This document shows, piece after piece, positions 3,687-51,196 of a stretch of DNA of 64,000 nt. The position numbers and the translations under genes were made by a program. The notes beneath the pieces were generated by a model. The model was not told where the DNA came from and did no database searches. It saw nothing but the letters and a program-made list of their open reading frames with translations. Numbering within the stretch: position 1 is the stretch's first letter; the number at the start of each line of letters is the position of its first letter. The stretch is from Escherichia coli (GTDB lineage Bacteria; Pseudomonadota; Gammaproteobacteria; Enterobacterales; Enterobacteriaceae): assembly GCF_003790525.1 (NCBI RefSeq), contig NZ_CP033635.1. One strand, written 5' to 3'.

Positions 3687-4472
3687 ATGGGATATTTAAA
3701 TAACGTCACCGGTTACCGCGATGATTTACTGGCTAACCGTGCGATTGTGAAACACGGTAATTTCGCGCTGTTAACCCCGGACGGCCTGGTAAAAAATATT
3801 ATTCCGGGCTTTGAAAATTGTGACGCGACAATCCTCTCCACGCCAAAACTGGGTGCCTCTTTTGTTGATTATCTGGTCACACTGCATCAAAACGGCGGCA
3901 ACCAACAGGGCTTCGGTGGCGAAGGCATTGAAACGTTCCTGTATGTGATCTCTGGAAATATCACTGCCAAAGCCGAAGGTAAAACATTTGCCTTAAGCGA
4001 AGGTGGCTATCTTTATTGCCCGCCAGGCTCCTTAATGACGTTTGTTAACGTCCAGGCCGAAGACAGCCAAATCTTTTTATATAAGCGTCGCTATATTCCG
4101 GTAGAAGGTCATGCGCCGTGGCTGGTTTCTGGCAATGCCAGCGAACTGGAACGCATTCATTATGAAGGCATGGACGATGTTATTCTGCTGGATTTTCTGC
4201 CCAAAGAGTTAGGTTTTGATATGAACATGCATATCCTCTCTTTTGCACCAGGTGCCAGCCACGGTTATATCGAAACCCACGTTCAGGAACACGGTGCCTA
4301 TATTCTTTCCGGTCAGGGGGTTTATAACCTCGACAATAACTGGATCCCGGTGAAAAAAGGCGATTACATCTTTATGGGCGCTTATTCTTTACAGGCTGGT
4401 TATGGCGTAGGGCGTGGTGAAGCGTTCAGCTATATTTACTCGAAAGATTGCAACCGCGACGTAGAGATTTAA
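3687..4472 (+). CDS. allE: (S)-ureidoglycine aminohydrolase (cupin)
   Basis: ORF track, 261 aa; recognised YlbA/AllE; 10-nt spacing after allC. Confidence 0.88.
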   Translation: MGYLNNVTGYRDDLLANRAIVKHGNFALLTPDGLVKNIIPGFENCDATILSTPKLGASFVDYLVTLHQNGGNQQGFGGEGIETFLYVISGNITAKAEGKTFALSEGGYLYCPPGSLMTFVNVQAEDSQIFLYKRRYIPVEGHAPWLVSGNASELERIHYEGMDDVILLDFLPKELGFDMNMHILSFAPGASHGYIETHVQEHGAYILSGQGVYNLDNNWIPVKKGDYIFMGAYSLQAGYGVGRGEAFSYIYSKDCNRDVEI

Positions 4473-4514
4473 GTCATACCACTCGCCTGATTATTTTTAG
4501 CTATGTTGGATTTT

Positions 4515-4541
4515 GCCACGGTTTATTCCGTGGCTTTTTTT
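4515..4541 (+). terminator. Rho-independent terminator downstream of allE
   Basis: GCCACGG / CCGTGGC stem followed by a T7 run. Confidence 0.5.
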
Positions 4542-4554
4542 GCGGTAAATTCAG

Positions 4555-4587
4555 GTAAAAAACGGATGCGATATAAATCGCATCCGC
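4555..4587 (-). terminator. Rho-independent terminator downstream of glxK
   Basis: CGGATGCGAT / ATCGCATCCG stem; on the minus strand it is followed by a U-run (plus-strand A-run 4557-4562). Confidence 0.5.
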
Positions 4588-4601
4588 TTTAAAGGTAATA
4601 G

Positions 4602-5747
4602 TCAGTTTTTAATTCCCTGACCTATTTTAATGGCGCAGGCAATATTTCGTGCGCTGTTGAAGAGATTGGTTTCACCGCTGGCGAGCACTTCGGCTAAAGG
4701 TGCCAGACGTGGCAAAATGCTGAACACCGCGTCAATGCCGTACTGGTGCACCACTTCCACGCCATCACCCAATACGCCAGCAATCCCAATCACCGGGACA
4801 TTAAACTGCTTCGCCACCGACGCCACGCCCAGCGGCGCTTTACCACCTGCCGTTTGCGAATCGATGCGCCCTTCCCCGGTGATCACCAGCGCTGCACCCT
4901 GCACCGCCTGCTCCAGGTTGACCGCCCGCAGTACAATCTCAATACCCGGTTTAATATCCGCATTGAGGAATACCGCCGCCGCAATGCCCATACCGCCCGC
5001 CGCGCCGCCACCCGCCATCTGGCAGACGTTGATTTCAGTTAGCTGTTGTAAAACACGGGCGTAATTTTGCAGCCCCTGTTCCAGTTCTTCGACCATTTCC
5101 GGCGTTGCCCCTTTTTGCGGACCAAACACCGCCGCCGCGCCGCGTGCCCCTACCAGCGGGTTATCAACGTCACATGCTACTTCAATATGACAGTTCGCCA
5201 GACGCGGATCGCATTCATTCATCTCAATACTTGCCACCCGCGCTAAATTGCCGCCGTTAGCCGCCAGCGGCTGACCGTCGGCATCAAGGAAACGCACACC
5301 GAGCGCCTGCGCCATGCCCATACCGCCGTCGACCGTCGCACTGCCGCCAATGCCGAGAATAATATGGCGAATGCCGTTATCCAGCGCATGGCGAATTAAC
5401 TCCCCCGTACCAAAACTGGAGGCCAGCAACGGATTACGCTTTTCAGGCGCGACCAGCATCAGGCCACTTGCTGCCGCCATCTCAATCACTGCCGTTTTCC
5501 CGTCGCCGGTAAGTCCATAAAAAGCATTCACTTTTTCGCCCATCGGCCCGCAGACTTCAAGCTTCACGATGTTACCGCCCGTCGCGGCGACCATCGCCTC
5601 CACCGTCCCTTCGCCGCCATCCGCTATCGGCAAACAGATATAGTGCGCATCGGGAAATATGGTCGAAAACCCGGCTTTAATTGCCTGACAACATTTTTCT
5701 GCACTTAAGCTCTCTTTAAAAGAGTCTGGCGCAATGACAATCTTCAT
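4602..5747 (-). CDS. glxK: Glycerate 2-kinase (glycerate kinase II)
   Basis: ORF track 4602..5753; recognised GlxK; start placed at [11 protein letters not shown] to match the ~381 aa protein. Confidence 0.9.
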
Positions 5748-6019
5748 TATCAATCCTTTTTCAACAAATTATTCGATGCGTTCCCACGGAATAAGATTAT
5801 CCATAAGAACAGCCAGTAAAATTCCGACCAGTAAGCCGTTACTGAGCAGAGGACGAAGCGTTAATGGAAGGTCTTGCAGATACACAGGCGGTAATGCCAT
5901 TAAAAATATGCCGACAAATAACGGCAATGCGAGTCGATAAATATTGCGAGCGGTAAACGTTATTTGCTGGCTAAACACCAGCGCGGAAAAGAGTAAAGGC
6001 AGATGGTAATGACTCCAAC

Positions 6020-6523
6020 TTACTGATAGTGTTTTATGTTCAGATAATGCCCGATGACCTTGTCATGCAGCTCCACCGATTTTGAGAACGACAGTGACTT
6101 CCGTCCCAGCCTTGCCAGATGTTGTCTCAGATTCAGGTTATGCCGCTCAATTCGCTGAGTGTAACGCTTGCTGATTACGTGCAGCTTTCCCTTCAGGCGG
6201 GATTCATACAGCGGCCAGCCATCCGTCATCCATACCACGACCTCAAAGGCCGACAGCAGGCTTAGAAGACGCTCCAGTGTGGCCAGAGTGCGTTCACCGA
6301 ATACGTGCGCAACAACCGTCTTCCGGAGCCTGTCATACGCGTAAAACAGCCAGCGCTGGCGCGATTTAGCCCCGACGTATCCCCACTGTTCGTCCATTTC
6401 CGCGCAGACGATGACGTCACTGCCCGGCTGTATGCGCGAGGTTACCGACTGCGGCCTGAGTTTTTTAAATGGCGGAAAATCGTGTTGAGGCCAACGCCCA
6501 TAATGCGGGCGGTTGCCCGGCAT
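6020..6523 (-). CDS. insB: IS1 InsB (C-terminal part of InsAB' transposase)
   Basis: ORF track, 167 aa, recognised InsB. Confidence 0.95.
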
Positions 6524-6717
6524 CCAACGCCATTCATGGCCATATCAATGATTTTCTGGTGCGTACCGGGTTGAGAAGCGGTGTAAGTGAACTGCAGTTG
6601 CCATGTTTTACGGCAGTGAGAGCAGAGATAGCGCTGATGTCCGGCGGTGCTTTTGCCGTTACGCACCACCCCGTCAGTAGCTGAACAGGAGGGACAGCTG
6701 ATAGAAACAGAAGCCAC
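6442..6717 (-). CDS. insA: IS1 InsA (transposition repressor / N-terminal part of InsAB' transposase)
   Basis: ORF track, 91 aa, [23 protein letters not shown]... recognised; A6C slippery motif lies at plus-strand 6460-6466. Confidence 0.95.
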
Positions 6718-7902
6718 TGGAGCACCTCAAAAACACCATCATACACTAAATCAGTAAGTTGGCAGCATCACCAAGGCAGATAAGAAACCAACATGACCGC
6801 GCTACTCACCGGTAAAGGGATACTGCAAAACAGTCGTGTGAGTGCCGGAACCAGTGCCACCAGCAGGCAAATAACGCTGCCATAAATAAACGATCGTCGC
6901 GTGTAATCGCCAGTCTGGGTTAATAAACCAATGGATGAAACAAACGGTGAAAATGGAATTACCGCCAGCGGCACGGTTATCAGCGTCATAAATCCGGTCG
7001 CCACAAAGCTGCGACGATAACGCGTATTCCCCGCGCCCTGTTGCGGATAAAAAACATCCGTGCCACGAATCGCACCGTAGGTATTGCTGATATTTACCAG
7101 ACCTGTAATCACCGCCGTCAGAATAATCCCCGGCGACAAAGCACCGCCACTGCCGAGCGGGAACCACTGCCAGTGCAACTCACCGGAGAGCGAATGCGAA
7201 GAAGGAAAGCAAAAGTACCACAACAACCAGCCGGTTATCGTACCGACCAGCAGGCCATAACGGGCAAAACGTTGCGGCAGGAAGATAATCATCGCCAGTA
7301 CCAGGCACATCACCGCCACCGAGAGCGCGAACGGCGGTAACTGAATTTTAAAATTCGGGTCGGCTATGCCAAACGGCAGCCCGAGCATACCTTTGAAAAA
7401 GATAGTGGTCAGCTGCGCGCCCAGCATCAACATAAACAAGACCATCACCGACGGCGTAAATAACCGCGCCAGACGATGACCTAATCCGCTAAAACCAATC
7501 AACATCGTCAGCACGCCAGAGAGCGCAATTCCCACCGCCAGGCTGGTAGCGATATCGTTGATCGGTGTCCCGCGCGATGCTTCGCCAAGGGTGATAGTCA
7601 GGATGGTTCCCCACCACAGGCCACCCGGCCCTTCCATAATAGCGCGACGATGACCGCAGAACGCCTGAGCGAAGCAGGCCAGTGCGGTAGCAAGAAAAGC
7701 ATATTGCGTGAGCGTAAGCAGGCTACTTTGCGGCAACTGAAAAGCAGAAAGTAGCGTAGGAGGAACCACAACCGTGTTGCAAAAAATAAAGAAAAACCAC
7801 TGAAATCCTGATAACAGGCTTTCGCGGCCCACTGCAAAATTGAACATAAACACACCTTAACCGGAGAATGCCCGCCACAAGGACGGGCATTGCAGGGCCA
7901 GA

Positions 7903-9264
7903 TTACTGCTGATGTTTAAGGATAAATTGACCTTTCGGCGCAACAGGGAAGCCCTGTTCGATGTCGTAAATCACATCACCACGTAAGATGGTTTTCGTGA
8001 TACGCGCGCCAATAGTACGGCCAACATACGGGCTGACTTTGTGGCGATATTCCAGATCGTCATTGGTAAGAACATAGCTGCTATTCGGCTGAATGAAGAC
8101 GAAGTCGGCATCTTTTCCTGGGGCGATACGGCCTTTTTGCTGCAGACCGAAAATATCTGCTGCGTTAGTCGCCATTAATTTGCCGAACATTGGCAGAGAC
8201 ATTCCGCGTTTCTGTACCGCTTCATCGAACATCACGTCCATGCAGCTTTGCAGACCAGCGATACCGCCCCACGCTTTCATGATGTTACCGGCTTTCATTT
8301 CCGGCGGGCATGGAGAGTGGTCGGAAACCAGGCAGTCTATTTCACCGTTAAACAGTTTTTCCCACATGCCTTTCTGGTTTTCCAGATCGCGGATCGGCGG
8401 TGAACACTTCGCCAGGGTGCCAATTTCTTCGAACTGATCGGTATCCAGCACAAAGTAATGCGGGCAGGATTCACAGGTAACATCCTGGCCTTCCTGACGT
8501 GCACGAGTCACTTCTTCAACACCTTCCGGGCTGCTGATATGGCAAACGTGCAGACGGCAACCGGCAACTTTCGCCAGGTACAGCACGCGGCGAATCGCTT
8601 CCACTTCGGTAAATACCGGACGCGAAGCCACATAGTCATGTGCGGTTACGCGACCTTCACGTTTCGCTTCTTCGCCAAGTTCGTCACAGATCAGCGCGTT
8701 TTCGCAGTGCACCAGCACCGGCTGTCCCAGTTCGCCCAGCTTCTGCGCACCTTTGAAGAACTGCCAGTCATTGACGTCACGGAAGTCGTTGTCGATACCG
8801 CGATCGCCACAGGTCGCAACGAAGCATTTGAAGCCGACAACGCCCACTTCATCCAGCTCATGCAGACGGTCGATGTTGTAAGACACCAGGCCACCGAGTT
8901 GCGCCGCATCGATAGTCAGCTTGCCTTTGGCGGCATCAAACTTCAGTTCAATCGATGCGCGGTCAACCGTTGCAGGCAGCTGGTTGAGCGGCATTTCGAT
9001 CATGGTGGTGATACCACCTTTTGCTGCTGCGCGAGTACCGGTTTCATAACCTTCCCAGTGGCTGCGACCCGGTTCAGAAATATGGGTGTGCGCATCAACC
9101 ATGCCTGGCGAAACCACCAGACCAGACGCATCCATAACTTCTTTTGCATCGCCCAGATCCTGACCGATAGCAGCAATTTTTCCGCCTTTAACGGCGACAT
9201 CCACTACGCGAGCTTCGTTTTCTAAAATAACGGTGCCGTTTTTAATGATTAAATCAAAAGACAT
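7903..9264 (-). CDS. allB: Allantoinase
   Basis: ORF track 7903..9312; recognised AllB; start placed at [12 protein letters not shown] to match the ~453 aa protein. Confidence 0.9.
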
Positions 9265-23846: not shown

Positions 23847-23996
23847 GTAGGCCTGATAAGACGCGCCAGCGTCGCATCAGGCATCCGCGCATAGCCGCCG
23901 GATGCGGCGTGAACGCCTTATCCGGCCTACCAAACCGTGCTAATTCAATACATTGCAGGTGCCATGTAGGTCTGATAAGACGCATCAGGCATCGCA
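23847..23996. repeat. REP/BIME cluster (three REP units)
   Basis: Repeated GCCTGATAAGACGCG...CGCATCAGGC and GCCGGATGCGGCGTGAACGCCTTATCCGGCCTAC motifs. Confidence 0.85.
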
Positions 23997-26958: not shown

Positions 26959-27045
26959 TGCGACGCTGACGCGTCTTATCATGCCTACAAAATATGCCCG
27001 AATCGTAGGCCAGATAAGGCGCTTGCGCCGCATCCGGCATATAGC
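26954..27045. repeat. REP/BIME element at the left edge of the accessory insert
   Basis: GCCTGATGCGACGCTGACGCGTCTTATCATGCCTAC ... GTAGGCCAGATAAGGCGC...CGCATCCGGC motifs. Confidence 0.8.
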
Positions 27046-27060
27046 CGAGTAGAGGCAAAA

Positions 27061-27423
27061 TTACTCTTCCCGGCCTTTACCCATACTTTTTTGGTCTTCA
27101 TCCGGATAGTGTTTTTTTAGATATTCCAGGACGTTTTTATTGACCTTGTGTTGGGTATACACCCACCCTTTCCAGTAATCAGGTTGGTCCAGGTAAACTT
27201 CTGGCGGAATGGTGAAATCAGAAAGCGTTAACCATTCGGCTAACAGATCGGGGTTTCGTTTCTGGATCAACTGCAACAGCATGATCAGCGACATGGCAGA
27301 GGCAGGAGCCGTACTATCGCCGCTTAAATACTTCCACACTGTCGACCGGTTCGAACGAAAAAGGATCGGTAGCAATGCCCGGTCCAGATTCATTTCATTA
27401 AAAATCTTCTCAAATTCATTCAT
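27061..27423 (-). CDS. Hypothetical protein, 120 aa, no signal peptide; function unknown
   Basis: ORF track; not recognised; divergent from the adhesin gene across an AT-rich intergenic region; not present at this position in my recollection of K-12. Confidence 0.5.
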   Translation of the reverse strand: MNEFEKIFNEMNLDRALLPILFRSNRSTVWKYLSGDSTAPASAMSLIMLLQLIQKRNPDLLAEWLTLSDFTIPPEVYLDQPDYWKGWVYTQHKVNKNVLEYLKKHYPDEDQKSMGKGREE

Positions 27424-27788
27424 TTAAATTTCCTGCCTGGCGTAAACCTCTTAAAAATTGAGATTTATCAAAGAAACGCATTTTAGCACACATCAGGAAC
27501 CGCTTCACGTTTAGTCCAGAAACAGAATTTATTTCGCTTATCAAAACAAGTCTTTACTCTTTTTTACATTGAAAGAGCACGAAATAATTTCCTTTTTTAT
27601 TTATATAAGAAACTATTTTTGTTCCTTATTGGTGGTGTTTACGCTTACACAAGACAAAAATGCGCTTTACATCACACAAATGGCGGCGTAGATTTCGATC
27701 AAATTGCAACGCAGTTTATTTCTTAAAACAATATTATTTGTTTCTTATAGAAACATTAATGCGACTTATTTTGAACAAGAGAAAATGA

Positions 27789-28805
27789 ATGAAAACTGTA
27801 AACGTAGCTTTACTGGCACTCATAATTTCAGCAATATCCAGCCCTGTTGTTTTAGCTGGTGATACCATTGAAGCGGCGGCAACAGAGCTTTCAGCCATTA
27901 ACTCTGGCATGTCGCAATCGGAGATTGAGCAGAAGATTACCCGCTTTTTAGAACGCACAGACAACAGCCCCGCTGCGTATACCTATTTGACTGAACATCA
28001 CTACATCCCTTCTGAAACACCTGATACCACTCAGACTCCCACTGTCCAGACAGATCCTGACGCAGGACAAAAAACCGTTGCCGCTACAGGTGATGTACAG
28101 ACAACCGCCCGTTATCAGAGCATGATCAACGCCCGACAGTCTGCGGTAACTGATGCCCAGCAAACGCAAATTACAGAGCAACAGGCGCAGATCGTAGCCA
28201 CACAAAAAACGCTCGCCGCGACTGGAGATACGCAAAATACCGCGCATTATCAGGAGATGATTAATGCCAGACTGGCGGCTCAAAATGAGGCTAATCAGCG
28301 CACTACCACGGAACAAGGGCAGAAAATGAATGCACTGACAACCGATGTGGCAGCACAACAGCAAAAAGAAAGGGCTCAATACGATAAACAAATGCAAAGT
28401 CTGGCGCAGAAGTCTGTCCAGGCACATGAGCAAATTGAAAGTCTGAGACAAGATTCCGCACAAACGCAGCAACAGTTAACCAACACGCAAAAACGGGTCG
28501 CAGATAACAGCCAACAAATTAACACGCTCAATAACCATTTCGATTCTCTGAAAAACGAAGTTGAGGACAATCGTAAAGAAGCCAATGCGGGAACTGCATC
28601 TGCCATTGCTATCGCCTCACAACCACAGGTGAAAACCGGTGACGTGATGATGGTGTCAGCGGGAGCGGGAACGTTCAACGGTGAATCTGCGGTGTCTGTA
28701 GGAACATCTTTTAATGCCGGAACGCATACGGTACTTAAAGCAGGTATTTCTGCGGATACACAATCTGATTTCGGTGCGGGTGTCGGCGTGGGATATTCGT
28801 TCTAA
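27789..28805 (+). CDS. Miniature trimeric autotransporter adhesin-like protein: signal peptide, Gln-rich coiled-coil stalk, YadA-type C-terminal beta-barrel anchor
   Basis: ORF track, 338 aa; N-terminal signal-like MKTVNVALLALIISAISSPVVLAG; stalk-anchor junction KEANAGTASAIAIASQPQ; anchor GDVMMVSAGAGTFNGESAVSVGTSF...VLKAGIS...GAGVGVGYSF with terminal aromatic; purine-rich RBS-like AAGAGA upstream. Confidence 0.8.
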   Translation: MKTVNVALLALIISAISSPVVLAGDTIEAAATELSAINSGMSQSEIEQKITRFLERTDNSPAAYTYLTEHHYIPSETPDTTQTPTVQTDPDAGQKTVAATGDVQTTARYQSMINARQSAVTDAQQTQITEQQAQIVATQKTLAATGDTQNTAHYQEMINARLAAQNEANQRTTTEQGQKMNALTTDVAAQQQKERAQYDKQMQSLAQKSVQAHEQIESLRQDSAQTQQQLTNTQKRVADNSQQINTLNNHFDSLKNEVEDNRKEANAGTASAIAIASQPQVKTGDVMMVSAGAGTFNGESAVSVGTSFNAGTHTVLKAGISADTQSDFGAGVGVGYSF

Positions 28806-28858
28806 TTTTAACAGCAATTTCTTATTCGCAATTTTCCGCACATTATTTAAGGTTAACA

Positions 28859-29281
28859 ATGATGAATAGCTCCATTAAATCGTTTTCCCTGCTGGCGGTT
28901 ATATTACTGGCTGGCTGTAGTTCACCCACTTCCCGCATCGCAGATTGCCAGGCGCAGGGCGTCAGCCATGACACCTGTTATCTCGCAGAACAGCAGCGTC
29001 AGACGGCTATTTTAAGTGCATCCGAGGCGCAGGCATTTAAAAATGCAGAAGCCGCACAACATGCCCAGGCGGCAAAGAAAGCCATTTATAAAGGATTTGG
29101 CATGACCTTTAGAATGAGCAGTAAGAACTTTGCTTATCTCAATGATTCATTATGTGCAATTGATGAAGACAATAAAGATGCCACTGTTTATCAGTCAGGT
29201 CTTTATAACGTCATTGTTTATCACCACACGGGAAAAGTCGCCTTAATGAAGGAAGGTCAGTTTGTGGGTTATTTAAAATGA
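28859..29281 (+). CDS. Putative lipoprotein, 140 aa
   Basis: ORF track; signal peptide with lipobox LLAGC (Cys20); immediately downstream of the adhesin gene. Confidence 0.6.
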   Translation: MMNSSIKSFSLLAVILLAGCSSPTSRIADCQAQGVSHDTCYLAEQQRQTAILSASEAQAFKNAEAAQHAQAAKKAIYKGFGMTFRMSSKNFAYLNDSLCAIDEDNKDATVYQSGLYNVIVYHHTGKVALMKEGQFVGYLK

Positions 29282-29481
29282 AGGAGCAAAGGAAAATCCC
29301 CCTGACGCATATTATGATTATCGGTGCGTTTATTTTTGCCTTCTTGCAAGTGGTGTTATTAGCCTCCCTGGTTCACGCTGTGAATGTTAACAACGAAATC
29401 CAGGAAGGCTTATTTCAGTCGGGGCGCATTATGGTAGAAAGTTTGCAGCATATTCTTTCGGTGCAAACGGGGATTAACTGA
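29278..29481 (+). CDS. Putative small single-pass membrane protein, 67 aa
   Basis: ORF track; start overlaps the lipoprotein stop (ATGA); one hydrophobic helix IMIIGAFIFAFLQVVLLASLV. Confidence 0.4.
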   Translation: MKEQRKIPLTHIMIIGAFIFAFLQVVLLASLVHAVNVNNEIQEGLFQSGRIMVESLQHILSVQTGIN

Positions 29482-29484
29482 TTT

Positions 29485-29892
29485 TCACCCCGCCCGATGA
29501 TGACAGCAGCCGGAGAGATTTTCGATAATCGGGCAGTCGGCGCTGTCATCACCGGGGCAGGCATTCGCCAGCGCCAGTAGCTGGTTGCGCATGGATTGCA
29601 GTTCTTCGATATGCCGTTCGATCTCCGCTACCTTCTCCAACGTACGACGTTTGACGTCGGCACTGTGACGCTGCGGATCGTTAAACAGATTCACCAGCTC
29701 GCCGCTCTCTTCCAGGTTAAAGCCCACCTGGCGTGCCTGCCGCAGTAAGGTCAGTTCGTTGAGATGCTGCTGCGTGTAGGTTCGATAACCATTTTCGCTG
29801 CGCATCGGCGGCGTCACCAGCCCCTTCTCTTCATAGAAGCGGATTGCTTTGCTGGTCAGGCCGGTAATTTTTGCTACATCGCTAATGTTCAT
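29485..29892 (-). CDS. cueR: MerR-family copper-responsive regulator
   Basis: ORF track, 135 aa; C-terminal metal-binding CCHH; recognised CueR. Confidence 0.92.
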
Positions 29893-30016
29893 CGTTCGCG
29901 CAACGCCTCCTGTGCTTTGTTAAAGGGTTTCAACAAATATTCAAGCACGTTTTTTTGCCAGTGCGAATATCGACCGCCACCACAATAATACAGGAAGTAC
30001 TGCGCACAGAGAGGTG

Positions 30017-35314: not shown

Positions 35315-36109
35315 ATGGATCTGTTGTACCGGGTAAAAACGCTTTGGGCCGCGCTGCGCGGTAATCATTACACCTGGCCTGCTATCGATATCTCTCTTCC
35401 CGGCAATCGCCATTTTCATCTGATCGGCAGTATTCATATGGGTAGCCACGATATGGCTCCCCTGCCCACCCGTTTGCTCAAAAAGCTCAAAAACGCCGAT
35501 GCGCTGATCGTCGAGGCGGATGTTTCCACCAGCGATACGCCTTTTGCTAATTTGCCTGCCTGCGAGGCGCTGGAAGAGCGCATTAGCGAGGAGCAACTCC
35601 AAAACCTGCAGCACATTAGCCAGGAGATGGGCATTTCTACCTCACTCTTTTCTACCCAACCGCTGTGGCAAATCGCGATGGTTCTTCAGGCGACGCAGGC
35701 ACAAAAACTGGGGCTCCGGGCAGAATATGGTATCGATTACCAGCTATTGCAGGCGGCGAAGCAACAACATAAACCCGTGATTGAACTGGAAGGGGCAGAA
35801 AACCAGATTGCCATGTTGCTCCAGCTCCCTGACAAAGGACTGGCACTGCTGGACGATACGCTGACCCACTGGCACACCAATGCACGGTTGCTGCAACAAA
35901 TGATGAGCTGGTGGCTGAATGCACCGCCGCAAAATAATGAAATAACGCTGCCCAATACGTTCAGTCAGTCGCTGTACGATGTGCTGATGCATCAGCGAAA
36001 TCTCGCCTGGCGGGATAAATTACGCGCCATGCCGCCGGGGCGATATGTGGTCGCGGTCGGTGCACTACACCTGTATGGAGAAGGGAATTTGCCGCAAATG
36101 TTGCGCTAA
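35315..36109 (+). CDS. ybaP: TraB/GumN-family protein
   Basis: ORF track, 264 aa; recognised YbaP. Confidence 0.85.
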   Translation: MDLLYRVKTLWAALRGNHYTWPAIDISLPGNRHFHLIGSIHMGSHDMAPLPTRLLKKLKNADALIVEADVSTSDTPFANLPACEALEERISEEQLQNLQHISQEMGISTSLFSTQPLWQIAMVLQATQAQKLGLRAEYGIDYQLLQAAKQQHKPVIELEGAENQIAMLLQLPDKGLALLDDTLTHWHTNARLLQQMMSWWLNAPPQNNEITLPNTFSQSLYDVLMHQRNLAWRDKLRAMPPGRYVVAVGALHLYGEGNLPQMLR

Positions 36110-36191
36110 AAAAATGGCCAATATCGCTATTGGCCCGTCAAAGAGGAATTTCATTTTTTTATTATTATGCCGTCACTTTAAGCGACGGTGT
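36108..36191 (-). ncRNA. chiX: ChiX (MicM/SroB/RybC) Hfq-dependent small RNA
   Basis: Minus-strand sequence ACACCGTCGCTTAAAGTGACGGCATAATAATAAAAAAATGAAATTCCTCTTTGACGGGCCAATAGCGATATTGGCCATTTTTTT matches ChiX as I recall it, ending in a GGCCAATAGCGATATTGGCC hairpin plus U-run; lies in the ybaP-ybaK spacer as in K-12. Confidence 0.8.
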
Positions 36192-41864: not shown

Positions 41865-41949
41865 GTAGGCCTGATAAGACGCGCCAGCGTCGCATCAGGC
41901 ATTGAGAGCAAAATGCCAGATGCGGCGTGAACGCCTTATCTGGCCTACG
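41865..41949. repeat. REP/BIME pair
   Basis: TAGGCCTGATAAGACGCGCCAGCGTCGCATCAGGC and GCCAGATGCGGCGTGAACGCCTTATCTGGCCTAC. Confidence 0.85.
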
Positions 41950-49264: not shown

Positions 49265-51196
49265 TCAAATGGGGCGGATACTTTCTTCATCCAGCTCCGC
49301 ATCGAAGAATCGACGCAGGGTCTGAATATTATTATCCGCAATAATGGACTCGCGCGCCTGCGCAAGTTTTTCTTCGTATATCGCCTGACGCCATTCCAGC
49401 GGCGTACGCACCGCGGGATTATCATCTTCAACGATAGTCAGTTCAACCGTTGAACCTTTTAACGTGCTCAACGCTTCAGCCAGTTTTTGCTGTGCGCCGC
49501 GGTTGTTCAAATGCCGCTGAGAGGAGCGCAAATGCAGACATACTGCGTTGTCGCTCTCCTCTTTCCAGGCATTTAACGCCACCTGTTCGACCAGTTTTGG
49601 TAGCGAAAGTTGACTCACCTGAGCCGCCCACGGGTCGCGCTCAATGGCTTCTGCCGCCAGCTTCGCCGCCAGTTCCGGCGTTTTTTCATGTTCCAGCGCT
49701 TTTTTCAGCGCCTTCGGCGTGGCGACCACTTCTTTTTGCTGCATCACTGGAGTGGTCGCCTTCCAGCGATACGCTTCTTTTTTGGCTGGCGCTTTTTCCA
49801 GCGCCGATGGCACCGGGCGCGCCTGAACGCGATCGGTGACCGAAGCCAGTCTTTCCAGCGCAGCGTTATTCACCGGCCGCGCGCGGGTAGCGGCTGCCGG
49901 TTCACTCTTTTTTGCTTTGGTTGCTCCCTGCACGCGCTGCAACTGCTGGCGCGCCGCCAGCACCTGGCTGGTGGTTTCCGGGAGCGGTACAGTCGGTGCC
50001 TGCTGCGGCGCTGATTGCGGTTGCGGCGGCACCTGGGTTGGCGTCATTACTGCCGTTGGCGCAACGGGCGCAAAGGACTGGCGTGGCACTTCTGGCTCAG
50101 GCAGAGGCATACGCGGATGGAACGCCAGCGCGCGCAGCAGCGTCATCTCAACGCCCATGCGGCGGTCCGGCGCATACGGTAATTCTTTGCGACCAATCAA
50201 CAGCGTTTGATAGTAAAGCTGAATATCCGTCGGCGGTATGGTACGCGCCAGTTCACGCATCCGCAGCTCGATGGCGGCCATGTCGTTGCCAAGTGCAGCA
50301 GGCGAAAGTTGTACCATCGCAATACGATGCAACAAACCGAGCATTTCCACCAGCAACGCTTCCCACTCGATACCACGGGCAGCAGCTTCATTAATTAGCG
50401 CCATTACGCGCTCGCCGTTGGCCTCGACCATCGCTTCAACCAGCGACAACGCCTGATCGTCGTCAAGCGTACCCAGCATCGCACTGACGGCCTGGGTTGA
50501 AACCTGGCCGTCACCGCTGGCAATCGCCTGGTCGGTCAGACTTAAGGCATCTCGCAAGCTGCCTTCAGCGGCGCGCGCCAGTAATTGCAACGCCCGCGGC
50601 TCGTGAGCGATATGTTCTTCGTTGAGGATGTGCTCAAGCTGATGGCGAATTTGCTCGACATCCAGCGCCTTGAGATGGAATTGCAGACAGCGCGACAAAA
50701 TCGTCACCGGCAATTTCTGCGGATCGGTCGTCGCCAGCAGAAACTTAACGTGCTCCGGCGGCTCTTCAAGGGTTTTTAACAGTGCGTTAAAGCTGTGGCG
50801 CGACAGCATATGCACTTCGTCGATGAGATAAACTTTGAAACGACCACGCGCCGGAGCGTACTGGACGTTATCCAGCAGGTCGCGAGTGTCTTCAACTTTA
50901 GTACGCGAGGCGGCGTCGATTTCAATCAGATCGACAAAGCGCCCCTGCTCGATTTCACGACAGTTATCGCACACGCCGCACGGCGTCGCGGTAATGCCGG
51001 TTTCGCAGTTTAGCCCCTTCGCCAGCAGTCGGGCGATAGAGGTTTTTCCGACGCCACGGGTACCGGAAAAAAGATAAGCATGATGAATACGCCCTAACGA
51101 CAAGCCGTTCGCCAGTGCGGTCAGCACATGTTCCTGGCCGACGACGTCAGCAAAGGTTTGTGGGCGCCATTTTCGGGCTAAGACCTGATAACTCAT
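49265..51196 (-). CDS. dnaX: DNA polymerase III tau subunit (gamma made by -1 frameshift)
   Basis: ORF track, 643 aa; recognised DnaX. Confidence 0.95.
   Translation of the reverse strand: MSYQVLARKWRPQTFADVVGQEHVLTALANGLSLGRIHHAYLFSGTRGVGKTSIARLLAKGLNCETGITATPCGVCDNCREIEQGRFVDLIEIDAASRTKVEDTRDLLDNVQYAPARGRFKVYLIDEVHMLSRHSFNALLKTLEEPPEHVKFLLATTDPQKLPVTILSRCLQFHLKALDVEQIRHQLEHILNEEHIAHEPRALQLLARAAEGSLRDALSLTDQAIASGDGQVSTQAVSAMLGTLDDDQALSLVEAMVEANGERVMALINEAAARGIEWEALLVEMLGLLHRIAMVQLSPAALGNDMAAIELRMRELARTIPPTDIQLYYQTLLIGRKELPYAPDRRMGVEMTLLRALAFHPRMPLPEPEVPRQSFAPVAPTAVMTPTQVPPQPQSAPQQAPTVPLPETTSQVLAARQQLQRVQGATKAKKSEPAAATRARPVNNAALERLASVTDRVQARPVPSALEKAPAKKEAYRWKATTPVMQQKEVVATPKALKKALEHEKTPELAAKLAAEAIERDPWAAQVSQLSLPKLVEQVALNAWKEESDNAVCLHLRSSQRHLNNRGAQQKLAEALSTLKGSTVELTIVEDDNPAVRTPLEWRQAIYEEKLAQARESIIADNNIQTLRRFFDAELDEESIRPI
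49870..49914 (-). other. dnaX programmed -1 ribosomal frameshift signal: slippery heptamer A_AAA_AAG plus downstream stem-loop
   Basis: Minus-strand GCA AAA AAG AGU GAA CCGGCAGCCGCUACCCGCGCGCGGCCGG; heptamer at plus-strand 49908-49914, GC-rich palindrome at about 49872-49900. Confidence 0.8.

Follow-up and report, generated by a model that had tools for sequence, protein, structure and literature searches.

A small YadA-family autotransporter of Escherichia coli O-island 29, published as the flagellar regulator GmrA

The stretch of Escherichia coli DNA analyzed here (64,000 nucleotides of contig NZ_CP033635.1, hereafter the window) is 100% identical to the chromosome of E. coli SMS-3-5 (NC_010498.1) and carries, at positions 27789..28805 of the (+) strand, a YadA-family trimeric-autotransporter gene of 338 codons for amino acids (aa). 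The open reading frame (ORF) appears as such in the program-made ORF list, and its product is 100% identical to the SMS-3-5 protein WP_000859803.1, which RefSeq names "YadA family autotransporter adhesin". The gene lies on a 2,526-bp island, known in O157 as O-island 29 (OI-29), which comparison with K-12 places at 26959..29484 of the window, between the convergent stop codons of ybbJ and cueR. The O157 counterpart of 27789..28805 is Z0639 (ECs_0548, 'gmrA'), which occupies the same island position and shares 324 of the 338 residues (96% protein identity); the published gmrA primers match at both ends of the ORF in the window. ECs_0548 of O157 Sakai is annotated as "adhesin", and in 2007 the O157 orthologue appeared as "Saa-like protein" in a list of adhesion genes (PMC2323221). 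The genome paper of strain 042 described a second trimeric autotransporter, Ec042-0536, of uncharacterized function (PMC2808357), which is probably the orthologue of the 338-aa ORF because of its position and because strain 042 is an island carrier. The ORF encodes a real and previously annotated small trimeric-autotransporter surface protein, already known and ordinary in kind.

The C-terminal part of the protein (residues 279–338, window 28623..28802, + strand) is a YadA-type membrane anchor with four strands and a C-terminal Phe, as indicated by Pfam, sequence matches in the PDB, an AlphaFold2 (AF2) model and Foldseek. Pfam YadA_anchor (PF03895) matches over exactly these residues and over the entire model (positions 1–60 of 60, E = 2.6e-11, 43.9 bits), and it is the sole significant Pfam domain of the protein. 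A phmmer search against PDB chains retrieved the anchors of AtaA (5.6e-07), Hia (4.7e-06 and 1.5e-05) and YadA (0.026), and otherwise nothing notable. The AF2 model, which is a monomer model built on 18 homologues with a mean predicted local distance difference test (pLDDT) score of 69.8, contains strands at residues 287–296, 299–309, 315–325 and 332–337, following a helix that ends at residue 276. When this model was compared with the PDB by Foldseek, ranks 1–4 were occupied by Hia and YadA anchors (probability 1.00, target template-modeling score 0.59–0.66). The chain ends in ...GVGVGYSF, with the alternating hydrophobic residues and terminal aromatic residue that are the pattern of outer-membrane proteins, and the C-terminal residue of the homologues is F or W.

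The anchor is preceded by a long stalk, which between residues 94 and 265 is composed of 19.8% Gln, 14.0% Ala and 12.2% Thr. The periodicity of its hydrophobic residues changes along its length. In the distal stalk (residues 101–185), the period is 3.67–3.75, and the corresponding powers were reached by 12 and 6 of 2000 shuffled sequences. In the proximal stalk (residues 186–276), the period is 3.5, with a power that was reached by 0 of 2000 shuffles. From this period, the heptad print-out and the AF2 model, a membrane-proximal heptad coiled coil was assigned to residues ~186–278 (28344..28622, +), with the stalk-anchor junction KEANAGTASAIAIASQPQ. Asn residues occupy core d positions of the heptads (V237-x-x-N240 and V258-x-x-N261), and both N240 and N261 are nearly invariant among the homologues; they fit the N@d layers that have been described for autotransporter stalks (PMC4786415). 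In the AF2 model, residues 101–276 form a single long helix that is broken only at G146-D147, with pLDDT values up to 96 (91–96 for residues 201–260).

The distal stalk contains two 45-aa modules (residues 95–140 and 140–185; 28071..28343, +), which were found by self-comparison at an offset of 45. At this offset, 26 of 46 residues are identical, compared with a mean of 11.6 and a maximum of 16 in 500 shuffles, and each module has the form K-T-[VL]-A-A-T-G-D ... [RH]-Y-Q-x-M-I-N-A-R. Neither Tandem Repeats Finder nor a seed-based repeat search detected the duplication at the DNA level, since the two copies share no more than 56% DNA identity, and only the protein sequence reveals it. Two copies of the module are present in most alleles and three in some, and one or two copies also occur in distant relatives (an FGI57-like enterobacterium and E. 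coli). The stalk duplication is old and belongs to the whole family. In both KTVAATGD motifs, the G-D is where the AF2 helix begins or is interrupted. The published beta-layer consensus is [aliphatic]-A-T-K-[polar]-[DE] (PMC4786415), and KTVAATGD agrees with it at 3–4 of 6 positions. A beta-layer at this motif was kept as a lead only, because the agreement is partial, and a monomer model cannot show such a layer.

At the N-terminus, residues 1–23 (27789..27857, +) are a predicted signal peptide, as judged from charge, Kyte-Doolittle hydropathy and the residues at positions -3 and -1. The sequence reads MKTVNVALLALIISAISSPVVLA|GDTIE, with a basic n-region, a 20-residue stretch with a mean hydropathy of 2.26, and a predicted cut after VLA, so that V is at -3 and A at -1. 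In homologues from other genera, the N-terminal sequence is different but still hydrophobic, and an AxA-like site comes after it. The AF2 pLDDT is <50 over residues 1–24. This segment is followed by a small helical N-terminal module (residues ~24–70; 27858..27998, +), delimited from the AF2 helices and from its place at the tip of related autotransporters. Its helices span residues 27–34, 43–56 and 61–69 (pLDDT 73–77), and the same module heads a 633-aa protein of Pseudocitrobacter, a 708-aa protein and Serratia proteins. No Pfam match or known family was found for it. The module is connected to the stalk by a Pro/Thr-rich linker (residues ~71–94; 27999..28070, +), which AF2 predicts to be disordered (pLDDT ~31 over residues 70–100).

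A Pfam search found no head, neck or other passenger domain in the 338-aa protein. When known passenger domains were sought in Pfam, NCBIfam and PHROGs, nothing specific was obtained outside the anchor and the proximal stalk; the matches to SMC, ATG16 and TMF_DNA_bd were regarded as coiled-coil noise. The architecture is the one that an earlier note on this DNA had read from the letters and the ORF list: its 338-aa ORF, its signal peptide, its Gln/Thr-rich coiled-coil stalk with a duplicated segment and its C-terminal YadA anchor were all recovered here, and the large head domain that it had stated to be absent is likewise absent from the Pfam results.

The 317 proteins that the homology search returned come almost exclusively from Escherichia (E. 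coli, E. marmotae, E. ruysiae and the cryptic clades) and have lengths of 338, 436, 457–459, 471, 477–480, 497, 530 and 577–579 aa; in their precomputed Pfam annotation, PF03895 is the only domain. The 338-aa form is a short allele of this length-variable family (338–579 aa), which is rarely found outside Escherichia. In the alignment, the longer alleles have ~120 or more additional coiled-coil-like residues inserted directly after the Pro/Thr linker, before the first stalk module, and some contain a third module. For this reason 'miniature', as the earlier note had called the protein, is a description of one allele. The further claim that it would be one of the smallest trimeric autotransporters fails, because a 293-aa YadA-anchor protein exists in Enterobacter asburiae, where it occupies the same position in the gene cassette and adjoins a homologue of the island lipoprotein. 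When the passenger alone (residues 1–268) was compared with 1.84 billion representative proteins, only 21 clusters were obtained, some of them from Pseudocitrobacter, Serratia fonticola and other enterobacteria. Part of these relatives share only the N-terminal helical module, and others only the stalk module. The name 'IHP-1-like', which UniRef gives to the 471-aa allele, led to no paper in the literature library that was searched.

The short allele could be regarded as a decaying remnant, i.e. a non-working truncated version of the 457–579-aa forms, since it does not have the ~120 stalk residues that are present in most other alleles. The reading frame is intact, however, and the deletion takes out whole coiled-coil segments in frame. 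The cluster of the 338-aa allele comprises 1187 member sequences, and ~1029 complete genomes contain a copy that is ≥95% identical. The SMS-3-5 and O157 alleles differ by 14 amino acids, with an overall ratio of non-synonymous to synonymous rates (dN/dS) of 0.21. Constraint is strongest in the anchor, where the two alleles show 8 synonymous but 0 non-synonymous differences; the N-terminal module is unchanged between them. The gene is also transcribed in O157, at 96 reads per kilobase per million mapped reads (RPKM) in Dulbecco's modified Eagle medium (DMEM). With these data at hand, we regard decay as extremely unlikely. As for the distribution of the differences, 13 of the 14 changes are located within residues 173–259 (window 28305–28565), mostly in the heptad stalk, and dN/dS is 0.33 for residues 186–262. 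This clustering suggests local recombination or surface-driven variation.

Yang et al. (2018) named Z0639 of O157:H7 EDL933, which is located on an island with z0638 and z0640, "GmrA", and presented it as an activator of transcription that has "a putative DNA-binding domain" and binds to the fliA promoter (PMC5826968). SMS-3-5 and strain 042 are among the island carriers in the table of that paper (PMC5826968). We mapped the primers of the paper onto the O157 locus (L002) and onto the window. The gmrA deletion arms (L002 3962–4000 and 5018–5055) exactly flank the YadA-family ORF (4001–5017), the z0638 arms flank the gene of the island lipoprotein, and the z0640 arms flank the gene of a 120-aa protein; both of these neighbors are described below. 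The forward primers for pET28a and pTRC99A start with ATGAAAACTGTAAACGTAGCTTTA, which corresponds to M1 of the autotransporter ORF, and the gmrA qRT primers also map onto this ORF. The protein that was studied as GmrA and the autotransporter described here are products of the same gene.

According to the published mechanism, GmrA would be a cytoplasmic transcriptional activator that binds the fliA promoter, and its YadA-like features would be irrelevant or vestigial. The evidence for this comprises specific shifts with competition in electrophoretic mobility shift assays (EMSA), a 7.75-fold signal at the fliA promoter in chromatin immunoprecipitation with quantitative PCR (ChIP-qPCR), fliA epistasis, an aflagellate phenotype of the gmrA deletion mutant that was complemented and was also seen in other pathotypes, and raised motility of K-12 carrying gmrA (PMC5826968). 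Later reviews repeat the GmrA-fliA claim, and at least three cite the gene as a laterally acquired transcription factor. On the other side, the anchor, which fits the whole Pfam model, is the part of the gene under the strongest constraint, and homologues in other genera have retained a signal peptide. Searches of Pfam, NCBIfam and PDB sequences detected no DNA-binding domain in the 338-aa protein. The sole match with a DNA-binding name in Pfam, TMF_DNA_bd over residues 203–252 (E = 0.079), is a chance coiled-coil match, which we suspect to be the origin of the published 'putative DNA-binding domain'; NCBIfam gave only coiled-coil-type matches, far below the cut-offs. The mature passenger is net acidic (20 K+R vs 31 D+E), and the predicted helix-turn-helix (HTH) protein of the island is encoded by the neighboring gene z0640.

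The constructs used in the biochemical experiments also bear on this question, as both were tagged at a terminus. The 3xFLAG reverse primer of the ChIP construct places the tag directly after ...GVGYSF, i.e. behind the terminal Phe, and the EMSA protein expressed from pET28a carried the N-terminal tag of the vector ahead of an unaltered signal peptide, and its purification started from soluble extract. Sec targeting and the C-terminal insertion signal depend on these termini. Because the tags sit on the termini that are needed for export or barrel insertion, the tagged proteins would be expected to be stranded in the cytoplasm or periplasm, in the former case presumably as an unfolded coiled coil. 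The literature library that was searched yielded no paper that reconciles GmrA with an autotransporter architecture. The published mechanism does not fit the export signal, the anchor or the failure to detect a DNA-binding domain; on sequence grounds we judge it unlikely, and a cytoplasmic activator with vestigial YadA features appears very unlikely.

The explanation that very probably accounts for the data as a whole is that the protein is a type Vc trimeric autotransporter, encoded by an OI-29 gene, whose published motility/fliA phenotype is indirect and mediated by the envelope. The precursor would cross the inner membrane through Sec and be cut after residue 23. Three anchors would then be built by the BAM machinery into one 12-stranded barrel. 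The three stalk helices would be threaded through the pore and associate on the outer side to form a fibre of ~25 nm (~175 residues × 0.15 nm), in which each chain would end in a small helical N-terminal module on a flexible Pro/Thr-rich tether. The effect on motility and fliA would be an envelope-mediated by-product of making an outer-membrane protein, as opposed to physiological promoter binding. The genetic link of gmrA to motility may well be real, given the deletion, the complementation and the use of several strains, which is why an indirect envelope effect is preferred.

Several points weigh against this explanation. The outer-membrane location is a prediction from the sequence and the predicted fold, and the EMSA, ChIP-qPCR and genetic results given above favor the published mechanism. 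If these results are sound, the motility link is real, and the 'indirect' route is a proposal without a demonstrated pathway. In addition, deletion of the whole island left adherence to HeLa or Caco-2 cells unchanged (PMC5826968), so that a role as a classical adhesin is not supported. Because adherence was unchanged, 'adhesin' is to be taken here as a family label and not as a demonstrated function. The passenger is nearly all stalk, and therefore we expect a stalk-type role (in autoaggregation, in the capture of soluble host factors or as a surface spacer) and consider adhesion to epithelia less likely. In the same study, all three genes (z0638, z0639 and z0640) were expressed in DMEM and were off after 3 h on HeLa cells (PMC5826968).

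A related explanation holds that the protein is a genuine surface autotransporter that also controls flagella, through envelope signaling (e.g. Cpx, Rcs or sigma-E) or through a change of the surface and not through DNA binding. Its architecture is that of an outer-membrane protein, and the genetic phenotype was reported in eight strains, with complementation. Moreover, the flagella of enterohaemorrhagic E. coli are known to be under the control of sensors of the envelope and the surface, and NlpE-CpxRA-LrhA, RcsB and Tol-Pal are listed as such regulators (PMC9387321). The direction of the effect would be unusual, however, the phenotype data all come from one laboratory, and the signaling pathway is itself a proposal. 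Envelope load and adhesin expression normally lower motility and do not raise it. Control of flagella by the fibre in this sense is possible but doubtful. Somewhat more speculative still is the idea that a canonical outer-membrane autotransporter truly switches on class-II fliA from the surface or envelope, in a circuit that the HTH protein, the lipoprotein and the small membrane protein of the island could join. Such a surface-to-flagella route is undescribed, because the protein has been assumed to be a cytoplasmic DNA-binding factor.

The mismatch with the literature matters, as the gene is cited as a fliA-binding transcription factor and yet has the hallmarks of an exported outer-membrane fibre. 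If the predicted architecture is right, either the regulatory model for O-island 29 may need revision, or there may be an undescribed link from a surface fibre to flagella. The most useful outcome of the analysis is the identification of the ORF with the published GmrA, together with a case against the published mechanism that is built on sequence. The second outcome is the recognition of a four-gene cassette that is conserved across enterobacterial genera and in which the predicted HTH protein is the product of a neighboring gene.

The four genes of the island are a divergent gene for a 120-aa protein, the autotransporter gene, a gene for a 140-aa lipoprotein and a gene for a 67-aa membrane protein. 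K-12 has no island at this site, and its cueR and ybbJ stop codons lie directly side by side. The G+C content of the island is 44%, compared with 51.8% for the window, and the island is present in 1465 of 5426 complete E. coli genomes (~27%), on the chromosome in every case. The four-gene island is laterally acquired. At its left edge (26959–27000), directly after the ybbJ stop codon, is TGCGACGCTGACGCGTCTTATCATGCCTAC, which looks like a repetitive extragenic palindromic (REP)-type element. Because the final ~25 bases of ybbJ are not those of K-12, the true left junction is located within the end of ybbJ.

The 120-aa protein (Z0640 orthologue; 27061..27423, - strand) is predicted from its AF2 model and Foldseek matches to be an HTH protein of the Xre/Cro type. 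The model has a pLDDT of 81, and its best Foldseek matches were HigA2, Aca2, P2 C and C.Esp1396I, all of which are Xre/Cro-type HTH proteins. The top match had a probability of 0.99 but an E-value of 0.37 and a root-mean-square deviation of 2.4 Å over 63 columns. Because the E-values are weak, the HTH assignment rests on the consistency of the match list; Pfam gave a weak match to MqsA_antitoxin (E = 0.12). The gene adjoins the autotransporter gene in three genera. From the modeled fold, this gene, and not that of the autotransporter, is the obvious candidate for the DNA-binding protein of the island.

The 365-bp intergenic region between the genes of the HTH protein and the autotransporter, which are divergent, contains a candidate sigma-70 promoter of the autotransporter gene (TTTACA-17 nt-TAGATT; 27666..27694, +), which was found as a match in a consensus scan only. 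Across four genera, no other part of the intergenic region is conserved as well as this TTTACA-17-TAGATT block. Two 22-bp direct repeats, TTTATTTCTTAAAACAATATTA and TTTGTTTCTTATAGAAACATTA, are located at 27715–27758, just 5' of the autotransporter start codon, and the region that holds them has a G+C content of 30%. These repeats could be an operator for the neighboring HTH protein.

The 140-aa lipoprotein (Z0638/ECs_0546 orthologue; 28859..29281, +) was recognized from its sequence, with the lipobox LLAG|C and Ser at +2, and from the O157 annotation 'lipoprotein'. Its gene lies directly 3' of the autotransporter gene in Escherichia, in the FGI57-like bacterium and in E. asburiae; in Pseudocitrobacter it is found a few genes downstream, after a second autotransporter gene. 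Homologues with 42–48% identity also occur without any autotransporter, e.g. beside ecotin or umuD-like genes. These lone homologues rule out the lipoprotein as an obligate partner of the autotransporter, and the pairing is thus frequent but not obligatory. The start codon of the gene of the 67-aa single-pass membrane protein (29278..29481, +; ORF list) overlaps the lipoprotein stop codon by 4 bases, and homologues of 64–68 aa are present at the same place in loci L003 and L005. Neither the lipoprotein nor the 67-aa protein had a match in Pfam, NCBIfam, PHROGs or the PDB.

The FGI57-like enterobacterium carries this set of four genes with identical order and orientation at another insertion point, between fetA and qmcA. 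Pseudocitrobacter faecalis also contains the four-gene cassette, extended by a second autotransporter gene: at 5001–8732 of its locus L005, autotransporters of 633 and 588 aa are encoded in tandem, and a serine recombinase is encoded ~4 kb away. This combination suggests that the cassette moves on an integrative element. Between genera, the accessory proteins are better conserved (43–74% identity) than the passengers (36–40%).

In the Rfam search, no RNA family was found in the island; the five matches in the window all lie elsewhere (the DnaX frameshift element at 49868–49932, naRNA4 at 23850–23927 and 41868–41945, sroB at 36108–36191 and STnc480 at 4479–4545). Just past cueR, at window ~29889–29986 (L001 8890–8987), RefSeq annotates a frameshifted gene fragment. 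At the same spot, O157 carries genes for an HlyD-family type I secretion adaptor and a giant RTX-like locus, of which SMS-3-5 seems to keep only a scar.

When the 338-aa protein is compared with YadA of Yersinia, the prototype of this class of adhesins, the signal peptide, the C-terminal four-strand anchor and the terminal aromatic residue are common to both. The shift of its stalk from a period of 3.67–3.75 distally to heptads near the membrane is also shared, as the YadA stalk undergoes a comparable change from right- to left-handed. In contrast to YadA, the protein has no beta-roll head or neck, and at its tip a helical module of 45 residues is joined to the stalk by a disordered linker; outside the anchor and the proximal stalk, no sequence similarity to YadA is detectable. 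NadA of Neisseria meningitidis, DsrA of Haemophilus ducreyi and Omp100/ApiA of Aggregatibacter are small proteins that consist mainly of coiled coil and have hardly any globular head or none, and the 338-aa protein resembles them in its small size and its predominantly coiled-coil passenger. N@d layers and stalk discontinuities have been described for Omp100 (PMC4786415). The difference is that no sequence relationship to these proteins beyond the anchor was found, and the KTVAATGD...RYQxMINAR and N-terminal modules are specific to a small enterobacterial group (21 of the 1.84 billion representative clusters).

Saa, the autoagglutinating adhesin of Shiga toxin-producing E. coli (STEC), and the immunoglobulin-binding Eib proteins are, like the 338-aa protein, small trimeric autotransporters of E. 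coli (392–535 aa, PMC12525524). The length of the 338-aa family varies between alleles through repeat modules. Saa also varies in length in this way. The 338-aa ORF differs from them in its location on the chromosomal ybbJ-cueR island, and among complete E. coli genomes it was never found on a plasmid. The label 'Saa-like' or Eib-like was not adopted: with tblastn, the matches on plasmids and phages were confined to the C-terminal part (29–57% coverage, <60% identity), and the EibD stalk structures were absent from the PDB sequence matches at E up to 1, while Saa was judged without direct sequence comparison. A final parallel concerns gene organization. SadA-SadB of Salmonella is an autotransporter with a helper lipoprotein. 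The OI-29 lipoprotein gene lies downstream, the Ser at +2 predicts sorting of its product to the outer membrane, and its homologues also occur alone, in which respects it would differ from the Salmonella system; as in SadA-SadB, the autotransporter gene adjoins a lipoprotein gene, and this pairing is kept in several genera.

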